From NCBI GenBank assembly GCA_009392915.1, contig CP045477.1, positions 480,001 to 544,000 on the forward strand: 64,000 nt of DNA, read 5' to 3'. Source of the stretch: Candidatus Forterrea multitransposorum CG_2015-17_Forterrea_25_41. GTDB lineage: Archaea; Iainarchaeota; Iainarchaeia; Iainarchaeales; CSSED10-239. This document shows, in pieces, positions 3,331 through 64,000 of the stretch. The notes beneath the pieces were generated by a model that ran no database searches, was not told where the DNA came from, and was given only the letters and a program-made list of their open reading frames with translations. Within the stretch, counting starts at the first letter, position 1; each line of letters starts with the position of its first letter. The position numbers were made by a program, and so were the translations under genes.

Positions 3331-3346
3331 TTAAAAATCAATCTCT

Positions 3347-4189
3347 TCATTTATATAAAATCCCAATTAATACAAATTCAATTACTGCAAATATTATTGA
3401 AAAAATCAACAATGATTCTTTTAATAAAAAATAATCTGTAAAAGTTATAAAAAATATTATTAAAATAACAATAAAAAAGAAAAATAAAAATATTGACATT
3501 AAAAATAAAATATTAATTCTACTTTTCTTTTGTTCACTTAACTCTCTTTTAGATTGTTCTAAATTAGTTAAGAAATCAAGAATAACTTGATTTAAGTCTT
3601 CTTTTTGATCAATAACTTCAATTAATTTTCTAAAGAAGTTTTTTTCAACTTCAGAATATGTTTCAGAAATTATTGATTTAAAAGTATCTTTAAGATTATG
3701 ATTTCTTTTATTTAAAGCAATTATTTTCTTTGCTTCTCTGCTTAATATATCATTATTTTCTAAGTTTTCAAAAACATTCAATACATCTTTAATAGTTAGA
3801 TTTTCATCTCTTAAAACAGATAAATGTTTTATAGATCTTTGAAATTCACTACCAATTTCTTTTTTTATATTATTTAAAATAAAAAAAGGATATTTAAATA
3901 AAAGTAAAAAAATCATAAAAGCAAAAGTAAAAGAAATAAAAATAGTTATAAAAAAACTAAAAAGATTAAACAATATTCCAAGTCTAATCATTAAATAAAT
4001 AAAAGCAAACTCTATAACTATTAAAAAAAATATAGAAATAAAAGAAATATTTGAAATATAACTAATAGAATCTTCATTGATACCAGTATATTCTAAAACT
4101 CTATCAAAATTTTTAAAAGTACCTTTAAATTGCATAACAATATCTTTTAAGAAAAATAAAGATATACTTGTTAAGAATTTACTAAACAT
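3347..4189 (-). CDS. FlaJ/TadC/GspF-family (T2SS-F domain) membrane protein, second half-size paralogue
   Basis: Two N-terminal TM helices, a cytoplasmic helical domain (SEFQRSIKHLSVLRDENLTIKDVL…) and C-terminal TM helices. Together with 2179..3330 this resembles a split FlaJ. Confidence 0.45.
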   Translation of the reverse strand: MFSKFLTSISLFFLKDIVMQFKGTFKNFDRVLEYTGINEDSISYISNISFISIFFLIVIEFAFIYLMIRLGILFNLFSFFITIFISFTFAFMIFLLLFKYPFFILNNIKKEIGSEFQRSIKHLSVLRDENLTIKDVLNVFENLENNDILSREAKKIIALNKRNHNLKDTFKSIISETYSEVEKNFFRKLIEVIDQKEDLNQVILDFLTNLEQSKRELSEQKKSRINILFLMSIFLFFFFIVILIIFFITFTDYFLLKESLLIFSIIFAVIEFVLIGILYK

Positions 4190-4196
4190 ATTTTTT

Positions 4197-7547: not shown

Positions 7548-7630
7548 AAATATGCCTTCTTTAAAATATATTTTAATATATAGATATTAGTTCATTAGAT
7601 TTATAAATCTTTAGATATTTTTTAATAGCT

Positions 7631-8362
7631 TCAAATAACAAAAGAAATAATTTTTGGAATAATTTCAAAAACATATAAAAGAATTAGAAAGATATAACTT
7701 ACTAGGATTAATATAATAAATGGAATTAAAGGAGAAAACCACACCTTAGAAATATTATGATTTTTAGCAATAACTTTAATTTTTTTAATTTCATTTTCTG
7801 GTTCAATATTTGGCATAAAAACAATTTTTGAAATTAATTTATTATTTTCTACATACAATTTTTCTAAAGGAGTATAAAAATTATTTACTTTTTTTAAAGA
7901 TAAAGGAACCCCTAAAAACATTAGATATAATGATTTAAAAAAATTATATTTAGGAAAATTTCTTGAAAATAAATTATATAAAAATAAGAAAACAGGTATA
8001 AGTAAAGTTAAAACTAAAGCAAAAAAGAAAATAAACATTGGAAAATATATATCAAAAATATTTGTAAATGATATTGCAAAAATAGTATAAAGATCCCCTT
8101 CTCCTATATATGTAAAATAACTAATCTTTCCTAAAACATAAAAAATTAATAAAAATATAAAACTTACAGCAAGTTGTATTAAATAACCTTTCCATAAAAT
8201 AAAATCTGTTTTAAAAACAAAAATACCTAAATAAAGAATACTAAAGATGGCTAAGAAAAATAAAGACATTATATTTATTTCTCTATACTTAATATCTTGA
8301 TAAGTTACATACAATAAAATAATTATAGAAAAAATAATTATTGGTAAATAAATATAATCCAT
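7631..8362 (-). CDS. Archaeal prepilin/preflagellin peptidase (A24 family, FlaK/PibD-like)
   Basis: Polytopic membrane protein with the two catalytic Asp motifs, TYQDIKYREI and IGEGDLY (GxGD-like). Confidence 0.55.
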   Translation of the reverse strand: MDYIYLPIIIFSIIILLYVTYQDIKYREINIMSLFFLAIFSILYLGIFVFKTDFILWKGYLIQLAVSFIFLLIFYVLGKISYFTYIGEGDLYTIFAISFTNIFDIYFPMFIFFFALVLTLLIPVFLFLYNLFSRNFPKYNFFKSLYLMFLGVPLSLKKVNNFYTPLEKLYVENNKLISKIVFMPNIEPENEIKKIKVIAKNHNISKVWFSPLIPFIILILVSYIFLILLYVFEIIPKIISFVI

Positions 8363-8369
8363 AAGTTAT

Positions 8370-9281
8370 CTATATTGATCTTTTTGTAAGATACATTAAA
8401 TCTTTATAAGCTTTAACTTTTGTTTTTCTTGCAGTTGATCTTTCAAAAAGATTATCAGTATAATTTCCAGGAGGTCCTACTGATTTAATTTTTTTATTTT
8501 TAATTTTATTTAAAAGAATCTTATTCTTTAAATTATCATCATCTTTATCAAAAAAAGAAGTATTTAGATCAATTGTTAAAATACCACTACCAATCTCAGA
8601 AACATTATAACTTCCAGAACCAGCTGTAATATAGTTTGACATTTTACCAAGCTTAATTGCTGCTTCAAATTTATAAACAACATCATAACTTTTTTGATCA
8701 ATTTTATGAGTTAAATATTCACTAAAACTTGAAAGTCCTAAAGTCTTAAAAAACCTATGAAGCTCTAAATAATCTAAAATATGTCTTAATTTTCTTAAGA
8801 AAAAAGAATCATGCATATAATAAGATAAATACCCAATTGTTCCAGTATATGCTTCAACACCAATTTTTTTTTCTTTAATAATTTTTTCTAATTTATCAAG
8901 TCCTAAAATATAAGTTGCAGAATTTGATATAAGTCCAAAAGGATGTGCAATTGTTATTAAATATCTTTTTTTATAACAAAAATCAATTAATCTTTTAAGA
9001 GAAACTTTATCTTCATAAAGTATAGAATAATTATAAATACTAGCATCTTCAGAAAAAACTAAAACTTCTCCAGAATCAGTTAATATTTTAATACCTGGAA
9101 TTAATAATTTATCTTTTGGTTTAAATTTTAAAAGTTCAAAATATGCTTTTCTAGGATCTAAATAATTATATTCAGTTATAGCTGTACCTAAAAGATTATT
9201 TTCAGAAACTACTTTCCAATATTTTTTTGCAGACTCTTTATTTTTAAAAAGATGAGTATGCATGTCAATATTATATAACAT
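8370..9281 (-). CDS. PHP-domain metal-dependent phosphoesterase
   Basis: N-terminal IDMHTH and internal IAHP motifs are typical of PHP-family hydrolases. Confidence 0.45.
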   Translation of the reverse strand: MLYNIDMHTHLFKNKESAKKYWKVVSENNLLGTAITEYNYLDPRKAYFELLKFKPKDKLLIPGIKILTDSGEVLVFSEDASIYNYSILYEDKVSLKRLIDFCYKKRYLITIAHPFGLISNSATYILGLDKLEKIIKEKKIGVEAYTGTIGYLSYYMHDSFFLRKLRHILDYLELHRFFKTLGLSSFSEYLTHKIDQKSYDVVYKFEAAIKLGKMSNYITAGSGSYNVSEIGSGILTIDLNTSFFDKDDDNLKNKILLNKIKNKKIKSVGPPGNYTDNLFERSTARKTKVKAYKDLMYLTKRSI

Positions 9282-9435
9282 ATATTAATATATGAACCTA
9301 TTAATATATATTTATTTTGCTTATATAATATATTACTTATGATGATTATTTAAAAATTTATATAAAAAATTACTATTTAAAATAATTTTTAAAAAAAAAT
9401 ATTAATTTTAAAAAAAACAAGGATGTGAATAAAAA

Positions 9436-10740
9436 ATGAAATTAAAATGTTTAGGAGCCGGAAATGAAGTTGGTAGAAGTGGTTTTTTACTTTACGGTTC
9501 TGATAAAATTTTATTTGATTATGGATTAAAATTAAATCCAAAATATCTAAATGAAAAATCTGAAAAAGTAGATTTTGAAGGAAATGTTGAAGAACCTATA
9601 AAAATAACAGAATACTTAGATGCAGTAATTCTTAGTCACGCGCACTTAGATCATTCTGGAGACATACCTTCTCTTTATAAAAAATATAATCCAAATCTTT
9701 TTTTAACTCAAGCAACTTTAGATTTATCTTCTCTTTTATGGAAAGATACTTTAAAAATTGCAAAATATGAACAAAAAACACCACCTTTTGAAAAAGAAGA
9801 TATGTATGCTGCACAAGATAGTGCTTTCTTTTTAAAACTTAATAAACCTACAGAAATTACAAAGAATTCAAAATTAACTTTTTATGATGCAGGACACATT
9901 ACTGGAAGTGTAATTTCAGTAATTGAAATGGATGGCAAAAAAGTAATGTATACTGGAGATTTTAGAGCTGAAGAAAGTTCATTATTTGCAGGATATGATA
10001 GAAATATACCAGAAGTAGATTATTTAATAATTGAAAGTACATATGGTTCTGAAAATCATATACCTAGAAAAAAAATAGAAGAAGATTTAATTAAAGAGAT
10101 TCAAGATACTTTAAAGAAAAGAGGAATGGTAATGCTTGCATCTTTTGCAATTGAAAGAAGTCAAGAACTAATAAGCCTTATGCATAAATATAAAATTAAA
10201 GCTCCAATATATGTTGATGGAATGGGAGTTAAAGCAACAGACATATTCTTAAACTACCCTGAATTTTTTAAAGATTATAAAGATTTTAAAAAATCAACTA
10301 AAGAAGTAAATTTTATAAGAAATAGCAAAATTAGAAAAAGTTTACTTAGAGAAACAAAACCATCAATTATTATAACTACAGCTGGAATGCTAGAAGGAGG
10401 ACCAATACTTCTTTATCTTAAAGAATTTGGTGATGATCCTAAAAACAAATTAATAACTACTGGATATCAAGTAGATGGTACAAATGGAAGTAGACTAAAA
10501 GAAACAGGTAAACTTTTCATTGATGGTGACTTATATCAACCAAGATGTGAAATTAAACATGCAAGTTTTTCAGGTCATCCAGGAAGAGATGAACTTATTA
10601 AATTTGTTAAAAAAGTAAAACCTAAGAAAGTAGTTTGTGTACATGGGGATCCATCCTCAATTGTAGATTTTAGAAAAACACTTGAAAAAGATGGTTTTGA
10701 AACTATTGCTCCAATGACTGGAGAAATAATTGATTTATAG
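9436..10740 (+). CDS. beta-CASP metallo-beta-lactamase-fold RNase (aCPSF2-like, no KH domains)
   Basis: HAHLDHSG motif, beta-CASP architecture, 434 aa. An SD-like AGGATGTGA lies upstream. Confidence 0.7.
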   Translation: MKLKCLGAGNEVGRSGFLLYGSDKILFDYGLKLNPKYLNEKSEKVDFEGNVEEPIKITEYLDAVILSHAHLDHSGDIPSLYKKYNPNLFLTQATLDLSSLLWKDTLKIAKYEQKTPPFEKEDMYAAQDSAFFLKLNKPTEITKNSKLTFYDAGHITGSVISVIEMDGKKVMYTGDFRAEESSLFAGYDRNIPEVDYLIIESTYGSENHIPRKKIEEDLIKEIQDTLKKRGMVMLASFAIERSQELISLMHKYKIKAPIYVDGMGVKATDIFLNYPEFFKDYKDFKKSTKEVNFIRNSKIRKSLLRETKPSIIITTAGMLEGGPILLYLKEFGDDPKNKLITTGYQVDGTNGSRLKETGKLFIDGDLYQPRCEIKHASFSGHPGRDELIKFVKKVKPKKVVCVHGDPSSIVDFRKTLEKDGFETIAPMTGEIIDL

Positions 10741-32528: not shown

Positions 32529-32608
32529 AAAAATTAATCCTAGTTTTTATTTTTTGAAAAATTAGATGAATGCTTGACCATCGCTCTTCAACTAAGTAAA
32601 GAGTTGAG

Positions 32609-32681
32609 TGCCTCGAGCCAGATTTGAACTGGCGGTCTCCAGATTATGAGTCTGGCGCTTTAACCACTAAGCCACCGAGGC
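32609..32681 (-). tRNA. tRNA with CAU anticodon (elongator Met or Ile2-type)
   Basis: Hand-folded. Acceptor GCCTCGG/TCGAGGC, anticodon arm CCAGA-CUCAUAA-UCUGG, T arm GCCAG-TTCAAAT-CTGGC, discriminator A. No initiator features (no G-C triplet in the anticodon stem, G1-C72). Confidence 0.75.
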
Positions 32682-38721: not shown

Positions 38722-41692
38722 CTTAAACTTTACTCGAACCATTAGTATTAGAGAGCTTAAATACTCGCCCGAAGGCTTGCATCGTATACTCCTAACCTAT
38801 CAAACCGGTCTTCTTCCGGAGTTCTCGTCTCGCATTTCTGCGAAAATGGCTGTCTCGTTTTAGGGTTCGCTTCGTGCTTAGATGCTTTCAGCACTTATCG
38901 AATACAGCGTAGCTACTGGGCATTGCCTTGTCAGACAACCCACACACCAGAGACTGCGACCCATCGTTCCTCTCGTACTAAACGGATCTTACCTTCAAAC
39001 AACCAACACAACCAATAGATAGGAACCAAACTGTCTCGCAACGTTCTTAACCCAGCTAATGTACGGCTTTAATGAGTGAACACCTCCACCCTTGGCTGCT
39101 TGTGCACAGCCAGGATGCCGTAAGCCGACAGCGAGGTAGCAAACCGCGGGGTCGATGTGAACTCTCACCCGCGACAACCCAGTTACCCCCAGGGTAAGTT
39201 CACTGTCAGACTAGGCCCCCATAAATAGGGACACTAGCGTTCGCTAGACCCAAGTTTCCTTCCAACGTTCCGTGCTTTTAAGAACATTGTTAAGCCTGCT
39301 TTTGGTCTTGTCCTCTACGGCTGATTTCTGACCAGCCTGAGCAGACCTTTGGACGCCCCTGATATCTTTTCAGGGGCGTACCGCCCCAGTCCAACCACCC
39401 GATCAAGTGATGTCCGTCATATAGACGTAAGTTGTATTTTTCCTACTAGATGGTGTTACATTGGCGTCTGACTACTTCCTAGCGAAAGCAGCTAAAGCGA
39501 CTCCCATCTACGCTCTATAGTAAAAACAATACAACAACACCAGACTGTGGTAAACCTCCGTGGGGTCTTATCCTCCCATTGGTTGTCCGTGGCTTATTCA
39601 CCACGCTAAGCAAGTTCACTAAGTTAAAGTTAGGGACAGTGACGATCTCGTTACTTCCTTGGTGCAAGCCGACATTTAATCGGCAAGGTATTACGCTACC
39701 ATGAGAGCCTCAGAGTTAGGCCCGCTCTTTACCAGCGCTTAGACCAGTTGGACCTGGCGTTCACGTACTAGCAGTGAGCAGAAGTCAGTGACTATACACA
39801 CCGTTTCCGGCTAGCAGTCACCTGTGTTTTTGATAAACAGTCGGACCATCTTTGTAATTAAAACTTACAGTTTACTCAACCGTAAGCACCCCTTCTACCT
39901 AAGATACAGGGCTAATTTGCCGAATTCCCTTAACTTTATTCTCTTATTACGCTTTGGCCTATTCAGCCAGGGACACCTTTCTCAGTTCTGGGTACGAACA
40001 ACAATACACTTTATAGTTTCTTTTTCATGGACCCTTGGCCTTGATAAAAGATTTCTCCCATTCACCTCTTTAATCTCCATCTCATTATTATAATTCTCCG
40101 GAGATCTATAAGGTTTAGATATGCAGACAAGCATACTCCACCTTGCCAAAAGTGTTAGAAACTATACTTGCGTTACCACACGTGCATTATCGGTACAGGA
40201 ATATGAACCTGTTTCCCTTTCGTCATTCTTCGAGTTACGAAGAGACTTAGGATCGACTTACCCTTAGCTAAAGATTAGTGCTAAGGAACCCTTGCCCTTT
40301 CAGCGGAAATGATTCTCACATTTCTTTGATGTTACTATCGCGAGGATCCATATCTTTGACAGATCCAGTGGACGTTACCCCCCACCTTCTGCTCTATCAA
40401 AGCACCTACCTACCAGATCACATATTGCATGTGCTCTATGATATCGGCGACAAACTTAGCCCCGTTAATTTTCAAGGCAATCGTCCTAGATTGGTGAGCT
40501 ATTACGCACTCTTTAAAGGATGGCTGCTTCTAAGCCAACCTCCCAATTGTCTTAGGAAAACTACTCTTTTCGAATTTACACTTAGTTTGTACTTAAGGGC
40601 CTTAATCATAGTCTGGGTTTTTTCCCTTTTGGAACAGAGGCTTACCCCCCGCCCCCTACTCTGGACTTCTTAGAAAATAACAGATTCGGAGTTTAACAAG
40701 AAAGGTGGAAATTTCTTCCCAGTACTTTCTAATCAGTAGCTCTACCCCGTTATTCTTCTCCATCCATGCTAACCTCAGAGTTATTTCGATAGGAGCCCGC
40801 TATCACCAGGTTCGATAACCTTATCAGTCCTACTCCCAAGTCATACGAACAGTTAGACTAGTACCGCTTATGACCTCCACCAACCAGGCGGTTGGTTTCA
40901 TCAAGCTCAGGAGTTTATCACCTGGTTTCGGGTCTAGTTTATGTGACTTAAGGCACAGTTAATACCTTTAGCCCTCAGAATCTTGCGGCACATCGGTTTC
41001 CCTACGACACAACGACTTAATCGCTTAGTCTTGCCACACAAACTAACTCCCTCGCCCGTGCTTCGTGACGGACAGTGTGACCCTGATCAAGTAATTTGCG
41101 CTTTAAAAGTTACCTTTTATCACTTATAAATTACTCTCATTCCTTTCAAGCCACACCCGCGCTGTCACCAATTAGTTTCAAGTGCTTTTTACTCCCCGTC
41201 AAGGGATCTTTTCAACATTCCTTCGCAGTACTCGTTCACTATCGGTCTTGTGTTATATTTAGAATTAGCTGTAAATGCCAGCTATTTTCTTACGCGATAT
41301 CCAACGCGCAATACTCTAGGACATCGGAAATCTTCTCAGATATCTTCTGCTTACGGGACTATCACCCTCTATGGTAGATCTTTCCAGATCGCTTCAACTT
41401 AAATATATAAGAAGTAACCAAGCCATACCCCACATGTCTCTTATATTACTATAAGAGATTCGGTTTGTTCTCTTCTGCTTTCGATCAACTCTATTTACAG
41501 AATCACTATTGTTTTCTTTTCCTCCAGGTACTAAGATGCTTCAATTCCCTGGGTTACCCCTTCACCTTATTTTCATAAAGTGAATAATTCAGAAATCTTG
41601 GGATCAAAGGTTGCATGCACCTACCCCAAGCTTATCGCAGCTTGCCACGTCCTTCATCAGTACACAAGCCAAGTTATCCACTAATTGGTTTA
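38722..41692 (-). rRNA. 23S (large-subunit) rRNA, archaeal
   Basis: The reverse complement contains domain V/VI landmarks: GCTGGGTTAAGAACGTTGCGAGACAGTTTGG, the sarcin-ricin loop TAGTACGAGAGGAAC, the A-loop GGAGGTGTTCAC, and the 5' region GATGAAGGACGTG. GC-rich relative to its surroundings. End coordinates are approximate to within ~10 nt. Confidence 0.9.
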
Positions 41693-41748
41693 GCTAAAAT
41701 TTAAGAATCATTTTTTTTTAACCAAATAAACTTGCTTTTGTTATTATT

Positions 41749-42593: not shown

Positions 42594-43793
42594 ATGTTAA
42601 TTGGAATTGTCGGAAAACCTAACGTGGGAAAAACAACTTTTTTTAGAGCTTTAACATTAATGGATGCAGAATCTGCAAATTATCCGTTTACAACAATTGA
42701 CCCTAACAAAGGAGTTGGTTTTGTAAGAAATAAATGTATTGATACTTTTTTTAATACACAATGCAATCCAAGAACAGGATACTGTAAAAACCACATAAGA
42801 TATCTTCCTGTAGATGTTATTGATGTTGCAGGTTTAGTTCCAGGAGCATCTGAAGGAAGAGGACTTGGAAATAAGTTTTTAACTGACCTTAACCAAGCAG
42901 ATGTTTTAATACAAGTAATTGATGCATCAGGTTCCACTGATGAAGAAGGAAAACCTGTTAAAGCTGGAAGTTATAATCCATCTCTTGAAATTAAATTTTT
43001 AGTTGAAGAAATTGAAAAATGGTTATTTGATATTTTTAAAAGAAATTTTATAAAAATTGGAACTGTTCAAAGAGTACAAAAAATTAAAACATTAAGAGTT
43101 TTAGAAGAATATCTCTATTCAACATTAGGATCAAAAGAAGAAGAAATACTTCAAGCACTTAAAAAAAGTAATTTAGTTGATAAAAATATTGCAGAATGGA
43201 CAGATGAAGAACTTTTATTTTTTACAAAAGAGATTAGAAAAGTTTCAAAACCTATAGTTATTGCTGCAAACAAAATAGATCTTCCTTTTGCAAAAGAAAA
43301 TATTGAAAGAATGAAAGAAGAATTTCCTGAACTTACAATTATTCCATGTTCTGCAGAATCAGAATATGCTCTAAAAGCTGCAGAAAAAGCAAAAATTATT
43401 GAATATCTACCAGGAGATTCTACCTTTAAAATATTGAAAGAAGATTTATCTGATAAACAAAAACAAGCTCTTGAATTTATAAAAACAAATATTTTAGAAA
43501 AATATCAAGAAACTGGAGTTCAAAAAATATTAGACACTTCTGTTTTTGAAGTTTTAAAATATATTGCAGTATATCCAGGAGGAACAAAAGGACTAGGGGA
43601 TAAAGATGGAAATATCTTACCTGACTGTTTCTTAATGCCACCTGGCTCAAAAGCAATTGATTTTGCTTTTAAACTGCATACAGACTTTGGTAAAAACTTT
43701 ATTAAAGCAATTGATGTTAAGACAAAAATGCTTCTAGGAAAAGATCATCCTTTAAAAAATAATGATTGTATTGAAATTGTTTCTGGGAAGTGA
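42594..43793 (+). CDS. Obg-family P-loop GTPase (YchF/OLA1-like) with C-terminal TGS domain
   Basis: MLIGIVGKPNVGKTTFF G1 motif, ANYPFTTIDPNKGV, DVAGLV G3 motif, and a C-terminal TGS-like segment. Confidence 0.65.
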   Translation: MLIGIVGKPNVGKTTFFRALTLMDAESANYPFTTIDPNKGVGFVRNKCIDTFFNTQCNPRTGYCKNHIRYLPVDVIDVAGLVPGASEGRGLGNKFLTDLNQADVLIQVIDASGSTDEEGKPVKAGSYNPSLEIKFLVEEIEKWLFDIFKRNFIKIGTVQRVQKIKTLRVLEEYLYSTLGSKEEEILQALKKSNLVDKNIAEWTDEELLFFTKEIRKVSKPIVIAANKIDLPFAKENIERMKEEFPELTIIPCSAESEYALKAAEKAKIIEYLPGDSTFKILKEDLSDKQKQALEFIKTNILEKYQETGVQKILDTSVFEVLKYIAVYPGGTKGLGDKDGNILPDCFLMPPGSKAIDFAFKLHTDFGKNFIKAIDVKTKMLLGKDHPLKNNDCIEIVSGK

Positions 43794-43797
43794 AAAA

Positions 43798-44313
43798 ATG
43801 GCAATAAAAATAGAACTTAAAGAGAATCTTACAAAAGAAGAATATGATCAAATTTCTCAGATATATGCAAAAACATTTACAATCAAAAATGAATTTACAG
43901 AAACAAATTTAAGTTTGAAAAATTGTAATAAATTGTTTGAAAAATTTCCTAAATCTTCTGCTCTTATAAAAGATAATAAAAAAACAATTGGACAAACATG
44001 GATTGTCCCTACAAATAGAAAAATAATGACTGAATTTCTTGAAAATAAAATAACAGAACAAGAAATGGTTTTAAAGTCTTTAAAAAAAGTTTCTTTAGAT
44101 AACTTTAATTGCATTTATCTTTTTTATTCTTCAATATTTCAAAAATATAGAAGACAAGGATTAATATTCAAAGCAAGAATAAAAACATTAAACCACTACA
44201 TTAAATTTAATAAAAAAATAATTCTATTTGCATGGGTATACTCTAAAGAAGGAGAAAACCTAGCAATAAAGACTGCTGAAAAATATAAACTACCTTTAAT
44301 TATTAAAAAATAA
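43798..44313 (+). CDS. Hypothetical protein, possible GNAT-fold acetyltransferase
   Basis: YRRQGLIFKA resembles GNAT motif A (R/QxxGxG/A). The ORF-track start at 43762 overlaps the upstream gene, so the start is probably the Met at 43798. Confidence 0.25.
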   Translation: MAIKIELKENLTKEEYDQISQIYAKTFTIKNEFTETNLSLKNCNKLFEKFPKSSALIKDNKKTIGQTWIVPTNRKIMTEFLENKITEQEMVLKSLKKVSLDNFNCIYLFYSSIFQKYRRQGLIFKARIKTLNHYIKFNKKIILFAWVYSKEGENLAIKTAEKYKLPLIIKK

Positions 44314-45696
44314 TTATTTTAAAATAAGATTAAACTTCTTTTTATTTCTTTTATTAAATAAATAATCTATGTCAGTTTCTTTAATAGTTACTTTTTTAGA
44401 TTTAATAATCTTTATTTTATCTCCATTTTTAAGAAGATGAGACTTATCTTTAATTATTTCTCCATTAATTTCTGCAAAATAAAAATATTTTGCAAAATCA
44501 GAATGAAGAGAAAATGCAAAATCTAGAAGAGTTGATTTTTTTGGGATTACAATTTCTTGATTTGTTTGGGTATAAACACTAATATAATCTATATATGAAA
44601 TATCTTTTGGTTTTTCAATTAATGTTTTATCTTTTAAAATATTAATTAAACGATTATCTTTTTCAGAAAATTCAATATTTTTATAGTGGAAATGAGCAGA
44701 AACACCAAACTCAGCATTGTTATGCATATCTATAGTTCTTATTTGTATTTCTAAAGGAAATCCATCTAAAATAATATTTAAGTGAATAGATTGATAACCA
44801 TTTTCTTTAGGATGCTTAATAAAATCTCTTACCTTTATATCATTATTCTCAATTACATTCAAATTATCTTTAATAAATTTTAAAGCAACATAACATTCTT
44901 TCTTAGAATTATAAATTAACCTTAAAGCATAAATATCTAAAACTTCATCAATATTATTTTTTTCTTTTCTAATAAATATTTTCTGAAATAAACTACCAGG
45001 ACTTTTATATCTATAATTATAAGTTATTGGCTTATGACCTGAATTTTTTAAAAGATTAATAACAGTTTCTTTTAAAGAAGTAAGTTTTTCTAAAGGATAT
45101 CTTTTTTTAAGTTCAGCATAATTTTTATTAAAACTATCTTTATATTTTAATTTCATTAGTTGAGTTAAAAAATCTTCTTTAAAATTTTGCATACCAAGTT
45201 GATAAGCTAAAGGAAAAATTGCAATTTCAATAATATCTAAAAATCTTTTTTTAAATTCAGGATCTTTTATTTTAGGAAAATAATCTAAAATAACTAAAGC
45301 TTCACCAAAAGTAATAATAATTGCTTCAATTTTAAAAAAAGACTGAACAATCATATTTTTAATTTTTATAGGAGAAATAGAAGGATTATTTATTAGATTA
45401 TAAAAATTAATAAAATAAATATCTTTAGATATCTTTCTAATAATTTTTACAAAACCCTTTTCTTTAATATTTAAATTATATTTATAAGGATTATAAAGAA
45501 CAGATGAAATTATAATATTTTCATCATAAACATTTAATCTTTTAGCAATAGCTAGAGAATATTCTACTAAAGATATATTCTTAAAAACATATTTATCAGA
45601 ATAATTATCTATAATTAAATTATATGATTTTTCAATATTTGAAGTATAATCTTTAATTAATTCTTTATATTCTTTTACAAATTTATTTTTAATCAT
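44314..45696 (-). CDS. RelA/SpoT-homologue (RSH) protein: degenerate N-terminal HD-like region, intact (p)ppGpp-synthetase motif, C-terminal TGS domain
   Basis: DIYALRLI…ECYVALKFI…DFIKHPKENGYQSIHLNI…EIQIRTIDMHNNAEFGVSAHFHYK matches the RSH synthetase signature (DYIA.PK.NGYQSLHT…EVQIRT.eMH..AE.GVAAHW.YK). IAIFPLAYQLGMQNFKEDF matches the preceding helix. The HD dyad is replaced by YN. C-terminal TGS: LLDFAFSLHSDFAKYF…NGDKIKII. Confidence 0.6.
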   Translation of the reverse strand: MIKNKFVKEYKELIKDYTSNIEKSYNLIIDNYSDKYVFKNISLVEYSLAIAKRLNVYDENIIISSVLYNPYKYNLNIKEKGFVKIIRKISKDIYFINFYNLINNPSISPIKIKNMIVQSFFKIEAIIITFGEALVILDYFPKIKDPEFKKRFLDIIEIAIFPLAYQLGMQNFKEDFLTQLMKLKYKDSFNKNYAELKKRYPLEKLTSLKETVINLLKNSGHKPITYNYRYKSPGSLFQKIFIRKEKNNIDEVLDIYALRLIYNSKKECYVALKFIKDNLNVIENNDIKVRDFIKHPKENGYQSIHLNIILDGFPLEIQIRTIDMHNNAEFGVSAHFHYKNIEFSEKDNRLINILKDKTLIEKPKDISYIDYISVYTQTNQEIVIPKKSTLLDFAFSLHSDFAKYFYFAEINGEIIKDKSHLLKNGDKIKIIKSKKVTIKETDIDYLFNKRNKKKFNLILK

Positions 45697-45739: not shown

Positions 45740-48607
45740 CTACTCAACTAAAAAACCTATTTTTCCAGGAGTTGCACTTTTTGCTTTTTCATTATCACTT
45801 TCTTCTGCTTTTATAATTTCAATAGATGTATTAAAAGTTAATTCTAAAAAATCTTTAATAGAAATTAAAAAATTATAATCTTCTTCTTGAGTTTTAATAT
45901 TTTCTTTAGACATTGGTTGTTTTAATAACTTAGGAATAGCTTTTGAAACTTCTTGTTTATTATCTGGATATTTAGAAATAAATTTGGAAATAATTTGTCC
46001 AACATTTTTAGTAATTTCAAGTTCAGCAATAACTTCTGAATAAAAAACATATTTCCAAGATTCAGATACAAATAAAGAAATTTTATTTATTTTTTCAAGA
46101 CCTGAAAGCTTAATTACATTTCTTAAGTTACTAATCATTTTTTCAACATTTTTTTCTTTATCATCAAGAGAAAGATTTATTTTTTCAATTTCAATTTCAG
46201 GAAATGTTTGTTTAACAACAAGTGTTTTATTTCCAACTAAACTATTAAGTTCTTCAGAAGTATGAGGAGTGAAAAGACCCATTGTTAAAATCCATTTTTT
46301 AAGAACTGAAAATATAACTTTTTTATTTATTCCACCTCTCTTAAGATACCAAGAAAAGTCATTATAAAAATTAAAATAAATTTCATCAGTAGCAGCTTTA
46401 AACTCTATTTTTTCCATAGATTCAATAATTGTTTGAAGTCTTAAATTAAATTTAGATTCAAACCATCTATCAAGTTCAGTTTCTTTTAAATCTTCTTTAA
46501 ACTCATTTGAAGAAATAATATTTTCAATAAACACAAATATTCTTTCAAGTCTTTGTTTATAAGTCTTTAAATCTTCTTCTTCAAAAGTAATATCAACAAA
46601 AGGACTTGCAATATTTGCATAGAAAAGTCTAATTGCATCTACAGAATATTTTTCTGCTTCAGATCCAATAGAACCTACTCCACCTTTAGATTTAGAAATT
46701 TTACCACCATTTGAAACAACCCACCAATTCACAAAAATTCCTTTAGGATAGAAATTTTTTTCAAAAACAGCAACATGATTCATTAAAAATGTTGGAAAAT
46801 GAACTGTTTGATGTTCTTTACCACCTAAATTAATATCTAATGGATACCAATAAATTACATCTTTTCTAATATTCTCTAAAATATTAATATCTATTGAAAT
46901 ATTTTTTGCAACCTCAATTGAATTTCCTTTTCCTAAAAACACAAAGTCAAAAAATTCTTCAGTTAATTGTTCAACATTTATTCTTCCTTGATTTACATAA
47001 AGTGAAACTAAATAATAAATAGGATAAAGAGTACTATCTGATATTGGTTCAACTGTATAAGATGGATCAAAAGGAAGTTTTGTTCCAAGCCAAGTTCCTT
47101 GTCTTGCACAAGCTCTATCATCAAACCAATTTAAAACATTTGGTAAATTCTTTTTAAAAGAATCTGGTAAAATAGACATTTCTTTAACATACTCAATTGT
47201 TTTTTCAGTTAATTGTTTATCTGAATATTTAATAAACCATTGATCATCTATTCTTTTTATGACAACTGGAGAAGAACATCTACAAAGAACTTCTTCTGAT
47301 AAATCATAAAAGATAAAAGCATTATTTTCATCAATCATTTTTTGTTTTATTTTATCTTTTGCAACTTCTACTTTAAGGCCTGCATATTCATCACAAACTT
47401 CACTCATAACCCCTGTATGATATCCTTTTTTGTAAACTTCTTTTTTTGCAATTTCTAACTTTTCAGTATCTTTTTGAGAATTAATTTTCATATTTTCACA
47501 AATTTCAACTGCAGGAAAATCACCGAAATCTTTAGATTTAATTATTGGTATTAGTTTAATATCTTTAATAGTTTCAAAATCTAAATTATATTTATCACAT
47601 TCTTCTTTTGATCTTTGTAAGTCATAAAGACCCATCCAATCAGCAGGAGCATCAGAAGGAACAGAAGTTACAATTCCAGTTCCTATCTTAGGATCACAAA
47701 AAGAAGAAGGTAATATAATTATCTCTCTATTAATTATTGGAGGAGTAACATACTTACCTAAAAGTTCACTTCCTTTAAAAGATTGACCTAAAAGTTCAAG
47801 ATTATCTACTTGATATTTTATTTTTTCATAAAAATCTTTTGATGCAATCCAAGTTTCATCTCCAGATTTTATTTTCACATATTCTTCTTCTGAGGAAAGC
47901 CAAATATTTGTTTGACCATAAACTGTTTCAGGTCTTAAAGTTGCAACTAAAATAAATTGATTTTCTTTTTCAAATTTTAATTTAATAATTGTAAACTCTT
48001 GTTTTTCTGCATTTCCACCTTTTGATAAATCCATTTCAGATGGGTCTACTGCAACAGGTCCACATTTAACACAAGCTGTTGCAAAATAAGGTTTTTGTAC
48101 AAGCAAATCTTTTTCTTTTAATTTTCTAAATTGCCATTCAATAAACTTTTGATAATCAGGATAAGTGGTTACAGTAAATCTTCTATCATCAACTAAATAA
48201 CCATAAGAAATATAATCTTTAACATACATTTGAGAAAAAAAATCAACAAAACCTTCAGGTGTTGAAATTTGATCTAAATTTTCTTTTGTTAAACCTTTAC
48301 TTTTATAATACTCAATTGTATCAGAATCATTTTCTTTAACTTTTAAAGCCTTTGAAACAGCACCATTTCCAGAAGCATGCCCTCCAGCTGATAGTAAAAC
48401 ATTATAACCTTGCATTCTTTTAAACCTACAAACAGCATCAGCATAAGAATACCCTCTCATATGCCCTACATGATGGAAACCAGATACTGTTAAGTATGCC
48501 CAGATTAAGAAAAATTTAGGTTTTGTCTCATCTCTATTTGAAACACCTATATTTTCTTCTTTCCATTTTGTTTGCCATTTTTTTTCAAAGTCATTATAGT
48601 TATACAT
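45740..48607 (-). CDS. leuS: Leucyl-tRNA synthetase (archaeal/eukaryal type)
   Basis: HIGH (HHVGHMRGY) and KMSKS (KISKSKGG) motifs. 955 aa. Confidence 0.85.
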   Translation of the reverse strand: MYNYNDFEKKWQTKWKEENIGVSNRDETKPKFFLIWAYLTVSGFHHVGHMRGYSYADAVCRFKRMQGYNVLLSAGGHASGNGAVSKALKVKENDSDTIEYYKSKGLTKENLDQISTPEGFVDFFSQMYVKDYISYGYLVDDRRFTVTTYPDYQKFIEWQFRKLKEKDLLVQKPYFATACVKCGPVAVDPSEMDLSKGGNAEKQEFTIIKLKFEKENQFILVATLRPETVYGQTNIWLSSEEEYVKIKSGDETWIASKDFYEKIKYQVDNLELLGQSFKGSELLGKYVTPPIINREIIILPSSFCDPKIGTGIVTSVPSDAPADWMGLYDLQRSKEECDKYNLDFETIKDIKLIPIIKSKDFGDFPAVEICENMKINSQKDTEKLEIAKKEVYKKGYHTGVMSEVCDEYAGLKVEVAKDKIKQKMIDENNAFIFYDLSEEVLCRCSSPVVIKRIDDQWFIKYSDKQLTEKTIEYVKEMSILPDSFKKNLPNVLNWFDDRACARQGTWLGTKLPFDPSYTVEPISDSTLYPIYYLVSLYVNQGRINVEQLTEEFFDFVFLGKGNSIEVAKNISIDINILENIRKDVIYWYPLDINLGGKEHQTVHFPTFLMNHVAVFEKNFYPKGIFVNWWVVSNGGKISKSKGGVGSIGSEAEKYSVDAIRLFYANIASPFVDITFEEEDLKTYKQRLERIFVFIENIISSNEFKEDLKETELDRWFESKFNLRLQTIIESMEKIEFKAATDEIYFNFYNDFSWYLKRGGINKKVIFSVLKKWILTMGLFTPHTSEELNSLVGNKTLVVKQTFPEIEIEKINLSLDDKEKNVEKMISNLRNVIKLSGLEKINKISLFVSESWKYVFYSEVIAELEITKNVGQIISKFISKYPDNKQEVSKAIPKLLKQPMSKENIKTQEEDYNFLISIKDFLELTFNTSIEIIKAEESDNEKAKSATPGKIGFLVE

Positions 48608-50385: not shown

Positions 50386-52980
50386 TTAAGAAATTATTCT
50401 TATATTAATTTCTGATTCTTGGTTTTCTAATATTTGATGAACAGTTGCATTGATATCAGTTGTTTGTGCTTTAATAATACCAACATCAGTTAAGATAGAA
50501 TCAATGTTTGTCCTAACCTCACCACTTAAAAGATTCCATGTATTTAAAGTAGTTTGATTAATTTCTTCTAACTTTTGTGCTTGTGTTTGATCCATTATTT
50601 CAATAGCTGTTTTAATATTATAAACTTCTTGACATAATGGGCTGTTGTTAGTATCTTCATTACCACAAAAGTTTTCAACTAATGCAAGATTATCATCAAC
50701 TGATGAAAATCTGTTTCTAATTTCTCCCATGTCTTCTTGATTAATTGAATTTGAAACTAACCAATTAGTATCTTGCTTAATTGATGTTAATTGATTTGTT
50801 AAATCTTCAAGCATTAAATCAAGTTGAACATTAATATTGTTTACAACTAAATCTGTCATTAAACTTGAAAGAGAATCATTTACATCAATTATCTGTGTCT
50901 GTAATGTTTGACCTGTTGAAACAACAGTTCCATTTACAGAAATCTCTAAATTATCAAGTCTTGTTGAAAGGAAATCATTTGAATCTGAAAACTTTTGTGC
51001 AATCAATGCATTTGTATAATTAAATTGATTTGTAATTTCAGTAGATAAATTAACATTAACAGCATTTAAAAGATCTGTTAAAGAAGTTGAAACATTTGTT
51101 AAATTTGTATTTATTTCTTCACCAGTTTCTGTAACAGTTGCAGTTAATGATAAATTTACATTATCAAGTTGACTAGATAATTCTGCAAATCTTAAATCAA
51201 TCTTATCTGAAAGATCAGTATTAACTGTGTTTAAAAGATTTGAAAGAGTTGTTGTTGAAAGAGAAATATTTGTATTTATCTCTTCACCTGTCTCTTCTAA
51301 ATTTGCATTTAAACTTAAATTAACATTTGTAAGTTGATCAGATAATTGATTAAATCTTAAATCAATCTTATCTGAAAGATCTGTATTAACTGTGTTTAAA
51401 AGATTTGAAAGAGTAGTTGTTGAAAGAGAAATATTTGTATTAATCTCTTCTCCAGTCTCATCTAAATTTGCATTTAAACTTAAACTTACATTTGTAAGTT
51501 GATTAGATAATTCTGTAAACTTTAAATCAATCTTATCTGAAAGATCTGTATTAACTGTATTTAAAAGACCAGTTAAAGAAGTTGAAACATTTGTTAAATT
51601 TGTATTTATTTCTTCACCAGTTTCTTCTAAATTTGCAGTTAAACTTAAATTTACATTTTCTAAATTATTTTGAGAAGTATTAAAATCTTCTTCTAATTGA
51701 TTTAATAAATTATTATTTACTGAATTTAATAAATCTAAAATATTTGTTGTAGAAGTATTAATATTTGTATTAATCTCTTCTCCTGTAGTTGTAACTGTAC
51801 CTGTTAAATTTAAACTAACATCATTTAAATTTGCAGTTAAAGAATTATAATCAAATTCCATTTGATCTAAAAGACCAGAATTAACTGAATTTAAAAGATT
51901 AGTTAAATTTGTGTTTGTAGTATCAATATTTGTATTTATTTCTTCGCCTGTTAAAAGAACAGTTCCTGTTAAATTTAAACTAACATCATTTAAATTTTCA
52001 TTTAATGAATTTAAATCAGAATCCATTTGATCTAAAAGACCAGAATTAACTGAATTTAAAAGATTAGTTAAATTTGTGTTAGTTGCATCAATATTTGTAT
52101 TAATTTCTTCACCAGTAGATGCAATTGTTCCAGTTAAATTTAAATTTACATTATTTAAATTTGCATTTAAAGAATCAAAATTTGTATCCATTTGTTCTAA
52201 AATACCAGAATTAACATTTGATAAAAGATTTTCTAAATTTGTATTAACATTTGTTAAACTTGTTTGAATTTCTTCACCAGTTGATGAAATTGTACCTGTT
52301 AAAGAAAGATCAACACCTGAAAGATCAGTTTGTAATGTTACAATTCCTTCTTGTAATTCATTTGCAAGAGTTCCATTAACATCTGCAAGTAAATCATTTA
52401 AAGAAGTATTCATGTTTGTTAAATTTGTTGTAATATATTCTCCAGTTTCAGAAATTTGACCAGCTACAGAAACATTAACATCTGCAAGTCTTAAATCTAA
52501 ATTATCTGATTTTTCGGTTAAAACACTTATTTGTTCAAGTGCTGGATTTAAGTGAAAAGATTGTGAACTTTTTACAATTGTTGCACCACTTCTACAAGTT
52601 ACTTCTTGTTCATAAGTTCCTAAAGGAGCATCTCCTAAATAATCTGTTCTATACCAGTTTCCTGCAATATTTGATTCAGACATTGGCTGATCATCAACAA
52701 ATACAGATTTGTCTGGATGCAGTATAGTTACTCTACATTCATCTATTGGATAAGGATTACCTTTATAGTCTGATAATCTAACAATAGTTGAACCATAATC
52801 TTCTCTCCAGTATTCTGTGTGAGAAACCCATTGGAAAGAAATTTCATCTTCAACAACAGTTTTTCCACTAACATAAGCAGTTGCTAAAAAGGCAACAACA
52901 ATTAATAAAACACCTAAAATACTTAATTTTAAGTATTTATTTCTTTTTTTCTTATCTGTCATAATTACTCTTAACCTCAT
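50386..52980 (-). CDS. Large membrane-anchored surface protein: N-terminal TM helix, globular domain, then ~8-9 tandem 54-aa Asn/Thr/Leu-rich repeats (coiled-coil/fibrous)
   Basis: Repeat units such as NANLEETGEEINTNISLSTTTLSNLLNTVNTDLSDKIDLRFNQLSDQLTNVNLSL. The underlying DNA units recur at a 162-nt period, for example at 51210 and 51372. Confidence 0.5.
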   Translation of the reverse strand: MRLRVIMTDKKKRNKYLKLSILGVLLIVVAFLATAYVSGKTVVEDEISFQWVSHTEYWREDYGSTIVRLSDYKGNPYPIDECRVTILHPDKSVFVDDQPMSESNIAGNWYRTDYLGDAPLGTYEQEVTCRSGATIVKSSQSFHLNPALEQISVLTEKSDNLDLRLADVNVSVAGQISETGEYITTNLTNMNTSLNDLLADVNGTLANELQEGIVTLQTDLSGVDLSLTGTISSTGEEIQTSLTNVNTNLENLLSNVNSGILEQMDTNFDSLNANLNNVNLNLTGTIASTGEEINTNIDATNTNLTNLLNSVNSGLLDQMDSDLNSLNENLNDVSLNLTGTVLLTGEEINTNIDTTNTNLTNLLNSVNSGLLDQMEFDYNSLTANLNDVSLNLTGTVTTTGEEINTNINTSTTNILDLLNSVNNNLLNQLEEDFNTSQNNLENVNLSLTANLEETGEEINTNLTNVSTSLTGLLNTVNTDLSDKIDLKFTELSNQLTNVSLSLNANLDETGEEINTNISLSTTTLSNLLNTVNTDLSDKIDLRFNQLSDQLTNVNLSLNANLEETGEEINTNISLSTTTLSNLLNTVNTDLSDKIDLRFAELSSQLDNVNLSLTATVTETGEEINTNLTNVSTSLTDLLNAVNVNLSTEITNQFNYTNALIAQKFSDSNDFLSTRLDNLEISVNGTVVSTGQTLQTQIIDVNDSLSSLMTDLVVNNINVQLDLMLEDLTNQLTSIKQDTNWLVSNSINQEDMGEIRNRFSSVDDNLALVENFCGNEDTNNSPLCQEVYNIKTAIEIMDQTQAQKLEEINQTTLNTWNLLSGEVRTNIDSILTDVGIIKAQTTDINATVHQILENQESEINIRIIS
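50890..52330 (-). repeat. Coding tandem repeat array, 162-nt unit (54 aa), ~8-9 copies with graded divergence; central copies nearly identical
   Basis: Long near-identical stretches (…cttatctgaaagatctgtattaactgtgtttaaaagatttgaaagagt…) recur at a 162-nt period. Confidence 0.7.
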
Positions 52981-61990: not shown

Positions 61991-63172
61991 TCACCAATTA
62001 TTCACAATTTCTTCAATATTTTTATTCATACTAAAAGGTTTATTTACTCTTGCATTCTTTTTAAGATAAAATAATGTGCCTTTTGATAAACCTTTATTCT
62101 TCCAATCAACATAAGATATATTTAATATCTTATTTCTAATTTCTTCTGTATCTTTCCTTTCTAGTTTATGTTTAGGTTTTGTAAAATCTATGTTTTTCGA
62201 TTTTTTCTTTAAAAAGTTAGATAGTTCTCTTGTTTTTAATAATATTAAATAATGAAAGTTTACTTTATCTCCTTTATATAATATCTTATGATTAAAATGT
62301 TTATTAATACTTTCTAAAACCTTTTTAGCTCCAGAAGATCTTAACCTTAAATTATAGTTTTCTGTTCTTATAAAATCCTTATCATTAATCAAATTATTCT
62401 CAATTAAATCTAAAACTGCAAGATCAACTAAATATCTAAATGGTTCTTGCATATCATAAGCTAAACTATTCTTACCATTTTGCTTTTCATGTAAAAAACC
62501 TATGTGTCTATCAAGACCAATAGAATTTATTGATTTTAAAATCTCTGCTTCTAATATAGCATATCCATAATTAAGCATACAATTAAATTGATCTCCAGTA
62601 CCTTTAGCTTCTTTCTTATATTCTCTACCTTCAAATTCATATTTTTTAGGTATAATCTTAATAAATTGTTTCCAATAATGAGAAGCAATTCTACCTTCTG
62701 ATAATAAAATATCTTGAATTGTATTTGATTTCTTAAATAATTCTAGCTCTTTACTAAAATTATTATCAATTACTGAATATCTTTCTTTTAGATAATCTAA
62801 AACTAGTTGTTGTTTTTCAAATTTAGCTTCAACAAACTTTTTAGCTAAATTTAATCTTTGAATTGAATAATCATAAGCTTTATATTGTTCAAACTTAGCT
62901 TCTGAACCTATATTCTTATATGGTAACATACTAGTAAGTAGTTGTCCATCCCAATTTAGAAAGCTAACTTGAACATAGTGTTTCATTAACCATCTAATAG
63001 CATCTAAAGTTAATTCTCCCGACCTACCATATATTACTATATGATCAATATTCATTTTTCTTGGAGAGTATACTAATGTTTCATTAACTAAATCAGTTTG
63101 ATGTTTAATTATTAGTTTTGCTTTATCTACTCTTAGGTTAATTCCATAACCATCTAATAACAATATTTTCAT
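61991..63172 (-). CDS. cas1: Cas1-family integrase, stand-alone (casposase-like: Cas1 core plus ~60-aa C-terminal HTH-like extension)
   Basis: Conserved Cas1 motifs: N-terminal MKILLLDGYGINLRVD, LLSEGRIASHYW (catalytic Glu), and NCMLNYGYAILEAEI…GLDRHIGFLHEKQNGKNSLAYDMQEPFRYLVD (His and Asp-x-x-Glu cluster). C-terminal LSKGTLFYLKKNARVNKP is HTH-like. 393 aa versus ~300-330 for CRISPR Cas1. Confidence 0.75.
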   Translation of the reverse strand: MKILLLDGYGINLRVDKAKLIIKHQTDLVNETLVYSPRKMNIDHIVIYGRSGELTLDAIRWLMKHYVQVSFLNWDGQLLTSMLPYKNIGSEAKFEQYKAYDYSIQRLNLAKKFVEAKFEKQQLVLDYLKERYSVIDNNFSKELELFKKSNTIQDILLSEGRIASHYWKQFIKIIPKKYEFEGREYKKEAKGTGDQFNCMLNYGYAILEAEILKSINSIGLDRHIGFLHEKQNGKNSLAYDMQEPFRYLVDLAVLDLIENNLINDKDFIRTENYNLRLRSSGAKKVLESINKHFNHKILYKGDKVNFHYLILLKTRELSNFLKKKSKNIDFTKPKHKLERKDTEEIRNKILNISYVDWKNKGLSKGTLFYLKKNARVNKPFSMNKNIEEIVNNW

Positions 63173-64000
63173 AAAATCTCACTTTCGGATTTTTTAATAT
63201 TTAATAATTTATTAACATTGTATCTTATTTGTAGAATTAAATCAGTTTGTCTTGTTAAACCATTAAAATTAAATTTTTGTTGTAATTTATATAAGTCTTC
63301 TCTATGATTATGTATGTAATTAGTGATATATTTAACAGAATATGTATGTTTAACATAATCTTCATTTTCATTTATTAAATCATCTTCCAATTGTATTAAT
63401 ACTTGTTTATCATCATAATGTGCTAATAAATAAAGTATCCATCTTTTTAGATTTGAAAATTCACTATCATATTTATTATATTTTTCCAGTAATTTTTTTA
63501 ATATAGTTCTAAATTCAGTTTGATTTATAACTTCTATATTATTTTCTAAAATTAATTGAACTAGTGTGTAACCAACAGAATTAATTAATTCTTTATCATT
63601 TATATTTAATTTAAGTATATTAATAAGATCATCAACGTTTTTAGCATAAATTAAATCATCTCTATATAAACTAATATCTCTTAATATTAACATTTTATTT
63701 TTTTCCGATTTTTCTTTACTTAACTCCTCTAATCTATTATTAATATATTGAATAATTTCTTTATTTTGTTTTAATCCAATGTACACAATCCTATTATCTT
63801 TTTCTATAATATCATAAACAGAATATTCGTCTTTAGTAATTTTAATTAATTCTTTACTATCTATAAAATGTTGTATATGTCTAACTGCTGTTGGTTTACT
63901 ACATTTATAATTATCCATTATAAAATTAATTAAATCAGTTTTAGGAACGAAAATTTTATCTCTTATAAATTTACTTATTTTAGGAATATCAATTTTAACC
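63169..64000 (-). CDS. Hypothetical protein, partial (open to the window end), overlaps the cas1 start by 4 nt
   Basis: The track ORF starts at 63918, but the frame stays open upstream to position 64000 (…VKIDIPKISKFIRDKIFVPKTDLINFIMDNYK…). Confidence 0.35.
   Translation of the reverse strand, partial: VKIDIPKISKFIRDKIFVPKTDLINFIMDNYKCSKPTAVRHIQHFIDSKELIKITKDEYSVYDIIEKDNRIVYIGLKQNKEIIQYINNRLEELSKEKSEKNKMLILRDISLYRDDLIYAKNVDDLINILKLNINDKELINSVGYTLVQLILENNIEVINQTEFRTILKKLLEKYNKYDSEFSNLKRWILYLLAHYDDKQVLIQLEDDLINENEDYVKHTYSVKYITNYIHNHREDLYKLQQKFNFNGLTRQTDLILQIRYNVNKLLNIKKSESEIL

Follow-up and report, generated by a model that had tools for sequence, protein, structure and literature searches.

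The DNA analysed here is a window of 64,000 nucleotides (nt) from Candidatus Forterrea multitransposorum (assembly GCA_009392915.1, contig CP045477.1, positions 480,001-544,000), and coordinates given below are those of the window unless another locus is named. On its minus strand, at positions 44314-45696, lies a gene for a RelA/SpoT homologue (RSH), a complete coding sequence of 460 amino acids (aa) with an ATG start codon and a TAA stop codon at 44314-44316. A first-pass annotation of the same DNA had placed the open reading frame (ORF) at exactly this position and had read it as a long RSH with a dead hydrolase, an intact synthetase and nothing beyond the TGS domain. All motifs quoted there were found in the protein, i.e. 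DIYALRLI (containing D254), DFIKHPKENGYQSIH (residues 291-305), EIQIRT (residues 316-321) and IAIFPLAYQLGMQNF (residues 158-172), and the domain analysis agreed with this reading. The protein is identical to NCBI entry NCP71982.1 and related entries, which are labelled 'TGS domain-containing protein [archaeon]'. Judged from its sequence, it is a derivative of the long RSHs consisting of a predicted inactive HD fold, a synthetase domain (SYNTH) and a TGS domain ([h]-SYNTH-TGS).

Domain architecture and conserved residues

In a Pfam scan the RSH matched RelA_SpoT and TGS only, both above their cutoffs, and no HD_4 or HD match was obtained even when the N-terminal 226 residues were searched alone at E<=10. 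The NCBIfam model TIGR00691 (spoT_relA) aligned residues 112-456 with profile positions 94-446 of 687 (E=1.4e-48), and both this model and the RelA model began to align at residue 80-112. The best sequence matches among structures in the PDB were Rel of Bacillus subtilis (6yxa, 1.1e-26) and RelA of Escherichia coli (2.2e-24), followed by small alarmone synthetases (SAS) at ~1e-8. An AlphaFold2 model (pLDDT 83.6, pTM 0.80) superposed over its full length on Rel, RelA and SpoT structures; with catalytic fragments comprising HD and SYNTH, the target TM score was 0.71-0.74 over about 350 columns. Conservation was assessed in 16 sequences of the clade to which the RSH belongs, and dN/dS between the RSH and a 94%-identical orthologue, where the overall value was 0.14. 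Purifying selection acts on all parts of the protein.

The N-terminal pseudo-HD domain (residues ~4-200; 45097-45687, minus strand) has kept the all-helical fold, and the active hydrolase site (His...HD...ED...DRLHN) is predicted from sequence and model to be lost. A profile that combined the HD regions of 105 further RSH matches aligned end to end with residues ~4-175 (E=4e-05), and the domain was confidently helical in the AlphaFold2 model (pLDDT about 85-95). Both the profile alignment and an alignment with HD-intact RSHs put Y68-N69 (45490-45495) at the catalytic His-Asp dyad, within the motif LYNPYK (residues 67-72) that had already been recognized as its replacement. The other hydrolase ligands are likewise replaced, the upstream His by Y46, ED by K72-Y73 and DRLHN by E132-A-L-V-I136 (45289-45303). 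Since ligands of both the metal and the substrate are missing, the pseudo-HD would be unable to hydrolyse an alarmone. The domain is nevertheless conserved rather than decaying, with a pairwise identity averaging 57%, 29 columns that do not vary and a dN/dS of 0.17, and N69, P70 and Y71 are invariant across the clade.

The SYNTH domain (residues 201-345; 44662-45096, minus strand) matched Pfam RelA_SpoT (PF04607) at residues 229-340 (44677-45012) with E=1.7e-29 and 102.8 bits (cutoff 27); a custom SYNTH profile matched the RSH at 2.8e-39. It comprises K297-E-N-G-Y-Q-S-I-H305 and E316-I-Q-I-R-T321 (44734-44808), which, going by the RelSeq and RelP/RelQ structures, are the acceptor-nucleotide and catalytic motifs. 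Individual residues were equated with those of B. subtilis Rel by a residue-by-residue alignment to 6yxa. R229-Y-K231 (45004-45012; Rel R241/K243) are basic ATP-phosphate-binding residues, with which K239 (44980-44982; Rel K251) is grouped, and D254 (44935-44937) corresponds to Rel D264, the site of the standard synthetase-dead mutation D264G, which abolishes synthesis (PMC7797070). Further equivalents were R259 (R269), D291 (D298), K297 (K304), N299 (N306), Y301 (Y308), H305 (H312), E316 (E324), Q318 (Q326) and R320 (R328). All of these residues, i.e. R229, K231, K239, D254, R259, D291, K297, N299, Y301, H305, E316, Q318 and R320, were invariant in the 16 clade sequences, as were S303 and T321; D254 and E316 are the aspartate and glutamate on which the claim of an intact synthetase had been made to depend. 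Where Rel carries RXKD and RelA EXDD, the RSH reads KVRD. SYNTH is the most conserved region of the protein (62% identity, 45 invariant columns out of 145, dN/dS 0.13).

A flexible linker (residues 346-371; 44584-44661, minus strand), which overlaps the low-confidence stretch of the AlphaFold2 model (residues 332-364) and is among the least conserved segments (49% identity), joins SYNTH to the TGS domain (residues 372-432; 44401-44583, minus strand; PF02824, E=1.3e-11, 44.8 bits, cutoff 22.2). Within the TGS domain, H398 (44503-44505) corresponds to H432 of E. coli RelA and H420 of B. subtilis Rel, a histidine that stacks on the 3'-CCA end of uncharged tRNA and is needed for activation (PMC7797070). 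In the clade, neither H398 nor the DFA..H motif around it varies, and the TGS domain together with the tail had the lowest dN/dS (0.09). The CCA-reading histidine and this strong constraint suggest that the TGS domain has a specific ligand, plausibly uncharged tRNA.

The protein ends with a lysine-rich tail of 28 residues (44317-44400, minus strand) with two short predicted helices, in which F447 and N451 are invariant. Read by eye, the tail looks like the conserved segment 'DWLxFVKTxxARxKI' found behind TGS in long RSHs (clade consensus 'LFVKKNKKKF' versus 'WLNFVKTxKAR'); MAFFT did not align the two automatically. The helical domain, the zinc-finger domain (ZFD/RIS) and the ACT/RRM domain of long RSHs are absent from the RSH; none of the 15 clade members examined matched PF28438, PF13291, PF01842 or PF19296, unlike the bacterial matches.

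Gene neighbourhood and archaeal residence

The RSH gene is native to the genome of a tiny, AT-rich archaeon. Directly upstream on the same strand, after a gap of 43 nt, lies the gene for a leucyl-tRNA synthetase (LeuRS) of archaeal type (45740-48607; leuS_arch 785.6 bits, leuS_bact 119 bits), and a full-length archaeal 23S (LSU) rRNA is encoded at 38722-41705 on the minus strand (2487.7 bits, model positions 1-2987 of 2987). Further archaeal markers in the window were a non-discriminating aspartyl-tRNA synthetase of archaeal type, a FlaI-like ATPase, an archaeal prepilin peptidase, NMD3 and an aCPSF1-like nuclease, so that the archaeal assignment made beforehand was upheld and its proviso, that the contig might be bacterial, was not borne out. 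The GC content of the RSH gene was 18.7%, compared with 23.2% for the window. Forty contigs carry the identical RSH protein, the longest of which measures 839,632 bp, and both near and distant clade members are labelled Candidatus Iainarchaeum (Iainarchaeota, formerly Diapherotrites, DPANN). In all six orthologous loci from other assemblies (RSH identity 48-94%), LeuRS is located immediately 5' of the RSH gene on the same strand, and a YGR210-type GTPase gene is found in convergent orientation within two genes after it. The 23S rRNA gene stands alone, as Rfam found neither 16S nor 5S rRNA in the window, indicating that the rRNA genes are unlinked.

The same-strand spacing between LeuRS and the RSH gene is conserved at 34-112 nt across these loci, and co-transcription of the two genes is possible. 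A TATA-like TTTTTTAAA is present in the spacer, which is uninformative at about 20% GC. Proximity to an aminoacyl-tRNA synthetase was also observed in a second group of RSHs (clade B, see below), where the RSH gene is 1-2 genes away from a prolyl-tRNA synthetase (ProRS) gene (L086:11245-12660, L087:10561-11979); L086 has yet another class I aminoacyl-tRNA synthetase near the RSH. This recurrence may be coincidental.

On the other side of the RSH gene, a small ORF of 167-183 aa (43798-44313, or from 43762 in a longer call, plus strand) lies between the RSH stop codon and the GTPase gene and is convergent with the RSH. Its start is probably M13 (43798), a choice that removes the overlap with the GTPase gene. 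The small ORF gave no Pfam, NCBIfam or PADLOC match; it is present in L081, L082 and L084 and absent from L088, whose RSH is 94% identical. The GTPase gene itself (42594-43793, plus strand) encodes a YchF-related/YGR210-like protein with a C-terminal TGS domain (Pfam YGR210-like_G4, MMR_HSR1 and TGS). It had been described as a convergent Obg-family GTPase with TGS next to the RSH. Orientation and TGS domain were as described; the family was not, since the protein scored 521.1 bits with the YchF-related model NF007171 (cutoff 387) and 89.6 bits with ObgE (cutoff 406), and the small ORF intervenes. Obg had also been named there as a classic (p)ppGpp-interacting family; a functional link based on the adjacency was rejected as unsupported: the region is generally collinear among close relatives, and the GTPase neighbour is missing at the archaeal RSH loci L086, L087 and L089.

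At locus L081 (RSH 76% identical, 8001-9401), a gene for a diadenylate cyclase (DAC, PF02457; c-di-AMP synthase) was observed directly downstream of the RSH gene (9458-10153, plus strand), so that two nucleotide-messenger synthases are located side by side; at the corresponding place in the window there is no gene. B. subtilis has a c-di-AMP receptor, DarB, that binds Rel (PDB 8acu).

Elsewhere in the window, a type IV pilus/archaellum-like cluster (2179-8362, minus strand) encodes two T2SSF/FlaJ-like membrane proteins, an archaeal A24 prepilin peptidase and a protein of 1116 aa with a FlaI-like ATPase domain at residues 668-955 and a long unannotated N-terminus. A beta-CASP nuclease of 434 aa (9436-10740, plus strand) resembles aCPSF1 (334.7 bits, below cutoff), has no N-terminal KH region and also matched the NCBIfam model 'type VII CRISPR-associated Cas14' below its cutoff (266.1 bits, cutoff 800). 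A protein of 864 aa (50386-52980, minus strand) carries helical repeats of apolipoprotein type (PF01442, 8.1e-23, below cutoff) and is likely to be a surface protein or a long coiled coil. Near the window end, a cas1 gene (61991-63172, minus strand; PF01867, 2.3e-62) is followed by an unannotated ORF of 249 aa (63169-63918); between 59.5 and 64 kb no CRISPR array turned up, and any array must lie beyond the window. An Rfam match to 'Plastid-ycf2 5'UTR' at 32608-32681 (plus strand), exactly at the gathering threshold, was dismissed as spurious because it is the antisense of tRNA-Met(CAT).

The Iainarchaeota clade and its origin

A word-indexed search yielded 15 clusters of proteins of 455-467 aa with RelA_SpoT and TGS only, which were 44-94% identical to the window RSH; beyond this clade the score dropped from 378 to 139 bits. 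When 1.84 billion cluster representatives were searched exhaustively with HMMER, only three fell in the clade (P0015, P0131 with 39% identity, and the fragment P0132), again with a gap beyond it, from 275.1 to 134.4 bits. Identity between the clade and any other RSH is only about 30%, and no bacterial protein exceeded about 34%. The clade was monophyletic in 96-100 of 100 bootstraps in neighbour-joining (NJ) trees, a method in which long-branch attraction is a risk.

In these trees the best sister was clade B, about 18 proteins of ~575 aa that gave no HD_4 match and have kept the zinc-finger motif. Their contigs carry a group II chaperonin and a ProRS of archaeal/eukaryotic type, indicating that clade B is archaeal as well. 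The wider neighbourhood in the tree was rich in proteins of ~610-645 aa, many with a degenerate HD (LHN, LHH, LHG). A metagenome-assembled genome of Nanoarchaeota (L080) was found to encode an RSH of 629 aa with HD replaced by HG, and P0037, a protein of 644 aa with complete HD-SYNTH-TGS-RIS-ACT architecture and an intact HD, is encoded on a contig with ribosomal protein L15e. A scan of GTDB genomes with the patterns IKxPKxNGY and E[IV]QIRT gave ordinary bacterial RSHs and no clade member among the matches listed, L080 being the useful find, and a profile search with an alignment of the HD-degenerate neighbours recovered generic bacterial Rel proteins only.

Compared with these other DPANN RSHs (P0037, the L080 protein and clade B), which share archaeal hosts, long-RSH ancestry and an often degenerate HD, the window clade is the shortest and most divergent, has nothing beyond TGS and is about 30% identical. 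Bifunctional Rel (B. subtilis 6yxa; Streptococcus equisimilis RelSeq 1vj7) is the best match in both sequence (1.1e-26) and fold (3.2e-22) and agrees in the order of HD fold, SYNTH and TGS, in the catalytic residues and in the CCA histidine of TGS; it differs in that the window RSH has its hydrolase ligands replaced, lacks the helical, ZFD/RIS and ACT/RRM domains, is about 22-30% identical and resides in an archaeon. Monofunctional E. coli RelA (5iqr) likewise has an inactive HD fold before an active SYNTH, and its TGS H432 corresponds to H398. The label 'RelA-type' given to the RSH earlier therefore holds for the predicted function as a synthetase-only enzyme, whereas descent from RelA does not follow: the RSH is not a RelA orthologue, HD activity was lost independently, the RSH reads KVRD instead of EXDD, and it is without the ribosome-binding C-terminal half, so that the A-site mechanism is inapplicable as such. 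Short RSHs of Patescibacteria, within the candidate phyla radiation (CPR) (481-500 aa; P0038, P0430, P0483), also end soon after TGS, in 'WLxFVKT..AR.KI', but are HD-intact (LHD..ED, DRLHN) and bacterial, and did not group with the window clade in NJ trees. The SAS proteins RelQ and RelP (5ded, 6ewz) share the synthetase fold and catalytic motifs; they are single-domain proteins of about 200-250 aa and matched the three-domain window RSH at ~1e-8 with a query TM of about 0.25. An assignment to SAS/toxSAS or to a defence module was rejected in view of the three domains, the lack of a co-oriented antitoxin and a PADLOC match that was only partial.

A census of RSHs found no long RSH in archaea and only sporadic genes for SAS and for small alarmone hydrolases (SAH) (Atkinson 2011, PMC3153485). 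In a later survey, RelA/SpoT was present in 69.0% of Diapherotrites, 41.7% of Woesearchaeota, 21.3% of Pacearchaeota and 19.0% of Nanoarchaeota, and the DPANN proteins were predicted to be bacterial in origin (Li et al. 2021, PMC8407392). The earlier statement that long RSHs are nearly absent from archaea is thus true of cultivated archaea and fails for DPANN, as the forms of 644, 629 and ~575 aa also illustrate. No literature was found on the architecture, the catalytic state or the reduced clade of these archaeal RSHs, and a term search of the supplementary tables of the RSH census of Jimmy et al. gave no archaeal entries. The presence of RSHs in DPANN was anticipated by the survey and the enzyme class is well known; [h]-SYNTH-TGS adds to the long RSHs a variant that is new, divergent and strongly reduced.

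With regard to origin, either transfer from bacteria or lineage-specific retention had been proposed. A bacterial origin is more plausible, since the archaeal distribution is patchy and limited to DPANN, and the source may have been bacteria directly or other DPANN archaea with fuller long RSHs. That the gene is extremely divergent, host-like in composition and conserved in its synteny indicates that its acquisition by the Iainarchaeota lineage was old and that it has been inherited vertically since. No donor lineage was supported in the NJ trees, in which clade B reached only 43-55% as sister.

Function of the minimal RSH

Taken together, we consider it probable that the RSH is a native, selectively maintained, synthetase-only alarmone synthetase making (p)ppGpp. 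SYNTH would use ATP as the pyrophosphate donor and the 3'-OH of GTP or GDP as the acceptor, and the pseudo-HD would probably serve as a structural or allosteric scaffold for SYNTH, as in RelA. The TGS domain with H398 might plausibly couple synthesis to tRNA charging, or be autoinhibitory, and the position of the gene right behind LeuRS is at least suggestive of a link to tRNA. Canonical ribosome-dependent activation would be precluded, as the RSH is missing those domains (helical, zinc-finger and RRM/ACT) by which Rel and RelA are held in the ribosomal A site.

Several observations weigh against this assignment or parts of it, regulation being the weak point. The score with TIGR00691 (165.8 bits) was below the cutoff of 499.2, as expected for a truncated and divergent protein; the RSH was also far under the curated cutoff of the SpoT equivalog model and reached 100.9 bits with the RelA equivalog NF008124 (cutoff 728). 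The RXKD-equivalent varies within the clade (KVRD, KVND, RITD). Hydrolases of the Mesh1 or SAH type, named as companions to check for in the first-pass annotation, were not found within the 64-kb window, nor was a second RSH, another RSH-type hydrolase, or a Nudix or PPX/GppA gene; in bacteria, a synthetase without a hydrolase is toxic (PMC3153485). With B. subtilis Rel, the isolated TGS domain without the helical domain did not bind tRNA stably, and deletion of ZFD and RRM compromised synthesis (PMC7797070), which makes tRNA sensing by the minimal RSH doubtful.

These last findings lead to an alternative in which enzyme and product are the same and regulation proceeds without tRNA or ribosome. 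Synthesis would then be constitutive at a low level or controlled transcriptionally, the gene perhaps being co-transcribed with LeuRS, for which the conserved spacing of 34-112 nt on the same strand speaks, and the TGS domain would only be an autoinhibitory or partner-binding module. The absence of the helical, ZFD and RRM domains is in agreement with this, as is the behaviour of the isolated Rel TGS and the finding that the C-terminal domains of B. subtilis Rel are needed for autoinhibition and ribosome-dependent activation (PMC7797070). The invariant H398 and DFA..H motif and the low dN/dS of TGS and tail, on the other hand, argue that the TGS domain has a specific ligand and is not a passive module. 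We regard regulation of this kind as a tentative but serious possibility.

It is improbable that the SYNTH fold carries out a different pyrophosphoryl transfer, either making (pp)pApp or modifying the 3'-CCA end of a tRNA delivered by TGS. Such activities are known for toxSAS RSHs (bioRxiv 10.1101/2021.04.30.441581), TGS is a binder of CCA ends, no alarmone hydrolase is visible in the window, and residues 205-326 gave a partial PADLOC match to the candidate PDC-S33. The nearest proteins in sequence and fold are, however, the long-RSH (p)ppGpp enzymes and not SAS or toxSAS, and none of the acceptor-site residues that the RSH has in common with Rel varies. Moreover, no antitoxin-like neighbour exists on the same strand, the small ORF being convergent and missing in L088, and the gene is stable, single-copy, under purifying selection and in a housekeeping context.

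That the protein is an inert relic, or a pseudoenzyme kept for a structural or regulatory role, appears very improbable. Of the two active sites of its ancestor one is already lost, the identity to other RSHs is about 30% and the curated family cutoffs are not reached, but all SYNTH catalytic residues checked are invariant at 44-94% identity, and SYNTH, with its dN/dS of 0.13, is the part conserved best.

Virtually no weight is left for a bacterial gene, e.g. from CPR/Patescibacteria, misassembled or mis-binned onto an archaeal contig: HD-SYNTH-TGS proteins of 481-500 aa do occur in a bacterial context or with a Patescibacteria label and the same samples contain both CPR and DPANN, but misassembly or contamination is effectively excluded by the archaeal LeuRS and archaeal-type GTPase on its flanks, the archaeal 23S rRNA about 2.6 kb away, the same arrangement in six loci assembled from other samples, the identical protein on 40 contigs, a GC content matching the host and bacterial proteins that are at most about 34% identical.

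In model archaea the alarmone is undetected, and in reviews from 2023 Archaea still figure as being without a canonical stringent response. A further-reaching idea, which we consider unlikely as a whole, is that the clade represents a minimal stringent factor, i.e. the first true (p)ppGpp maker of archaea, sensing uncharged tRNA or another TGS ligand off the ribosome with the TGS domain alone, in a reduced genome without an RSH-type hydrolase. If this were true, the alarmone would act on archaeal translation GTPases and nucleotide metabolism, and its off-switch would be unlike the bacterial one. For decades it has been asked whether archaea make use of (p)ppGpp; the RSH gene provides a clonable and directly testable candidate, and the minimal RSH bears on how much of the C-terminal machinery of long RSHs regulation needs.

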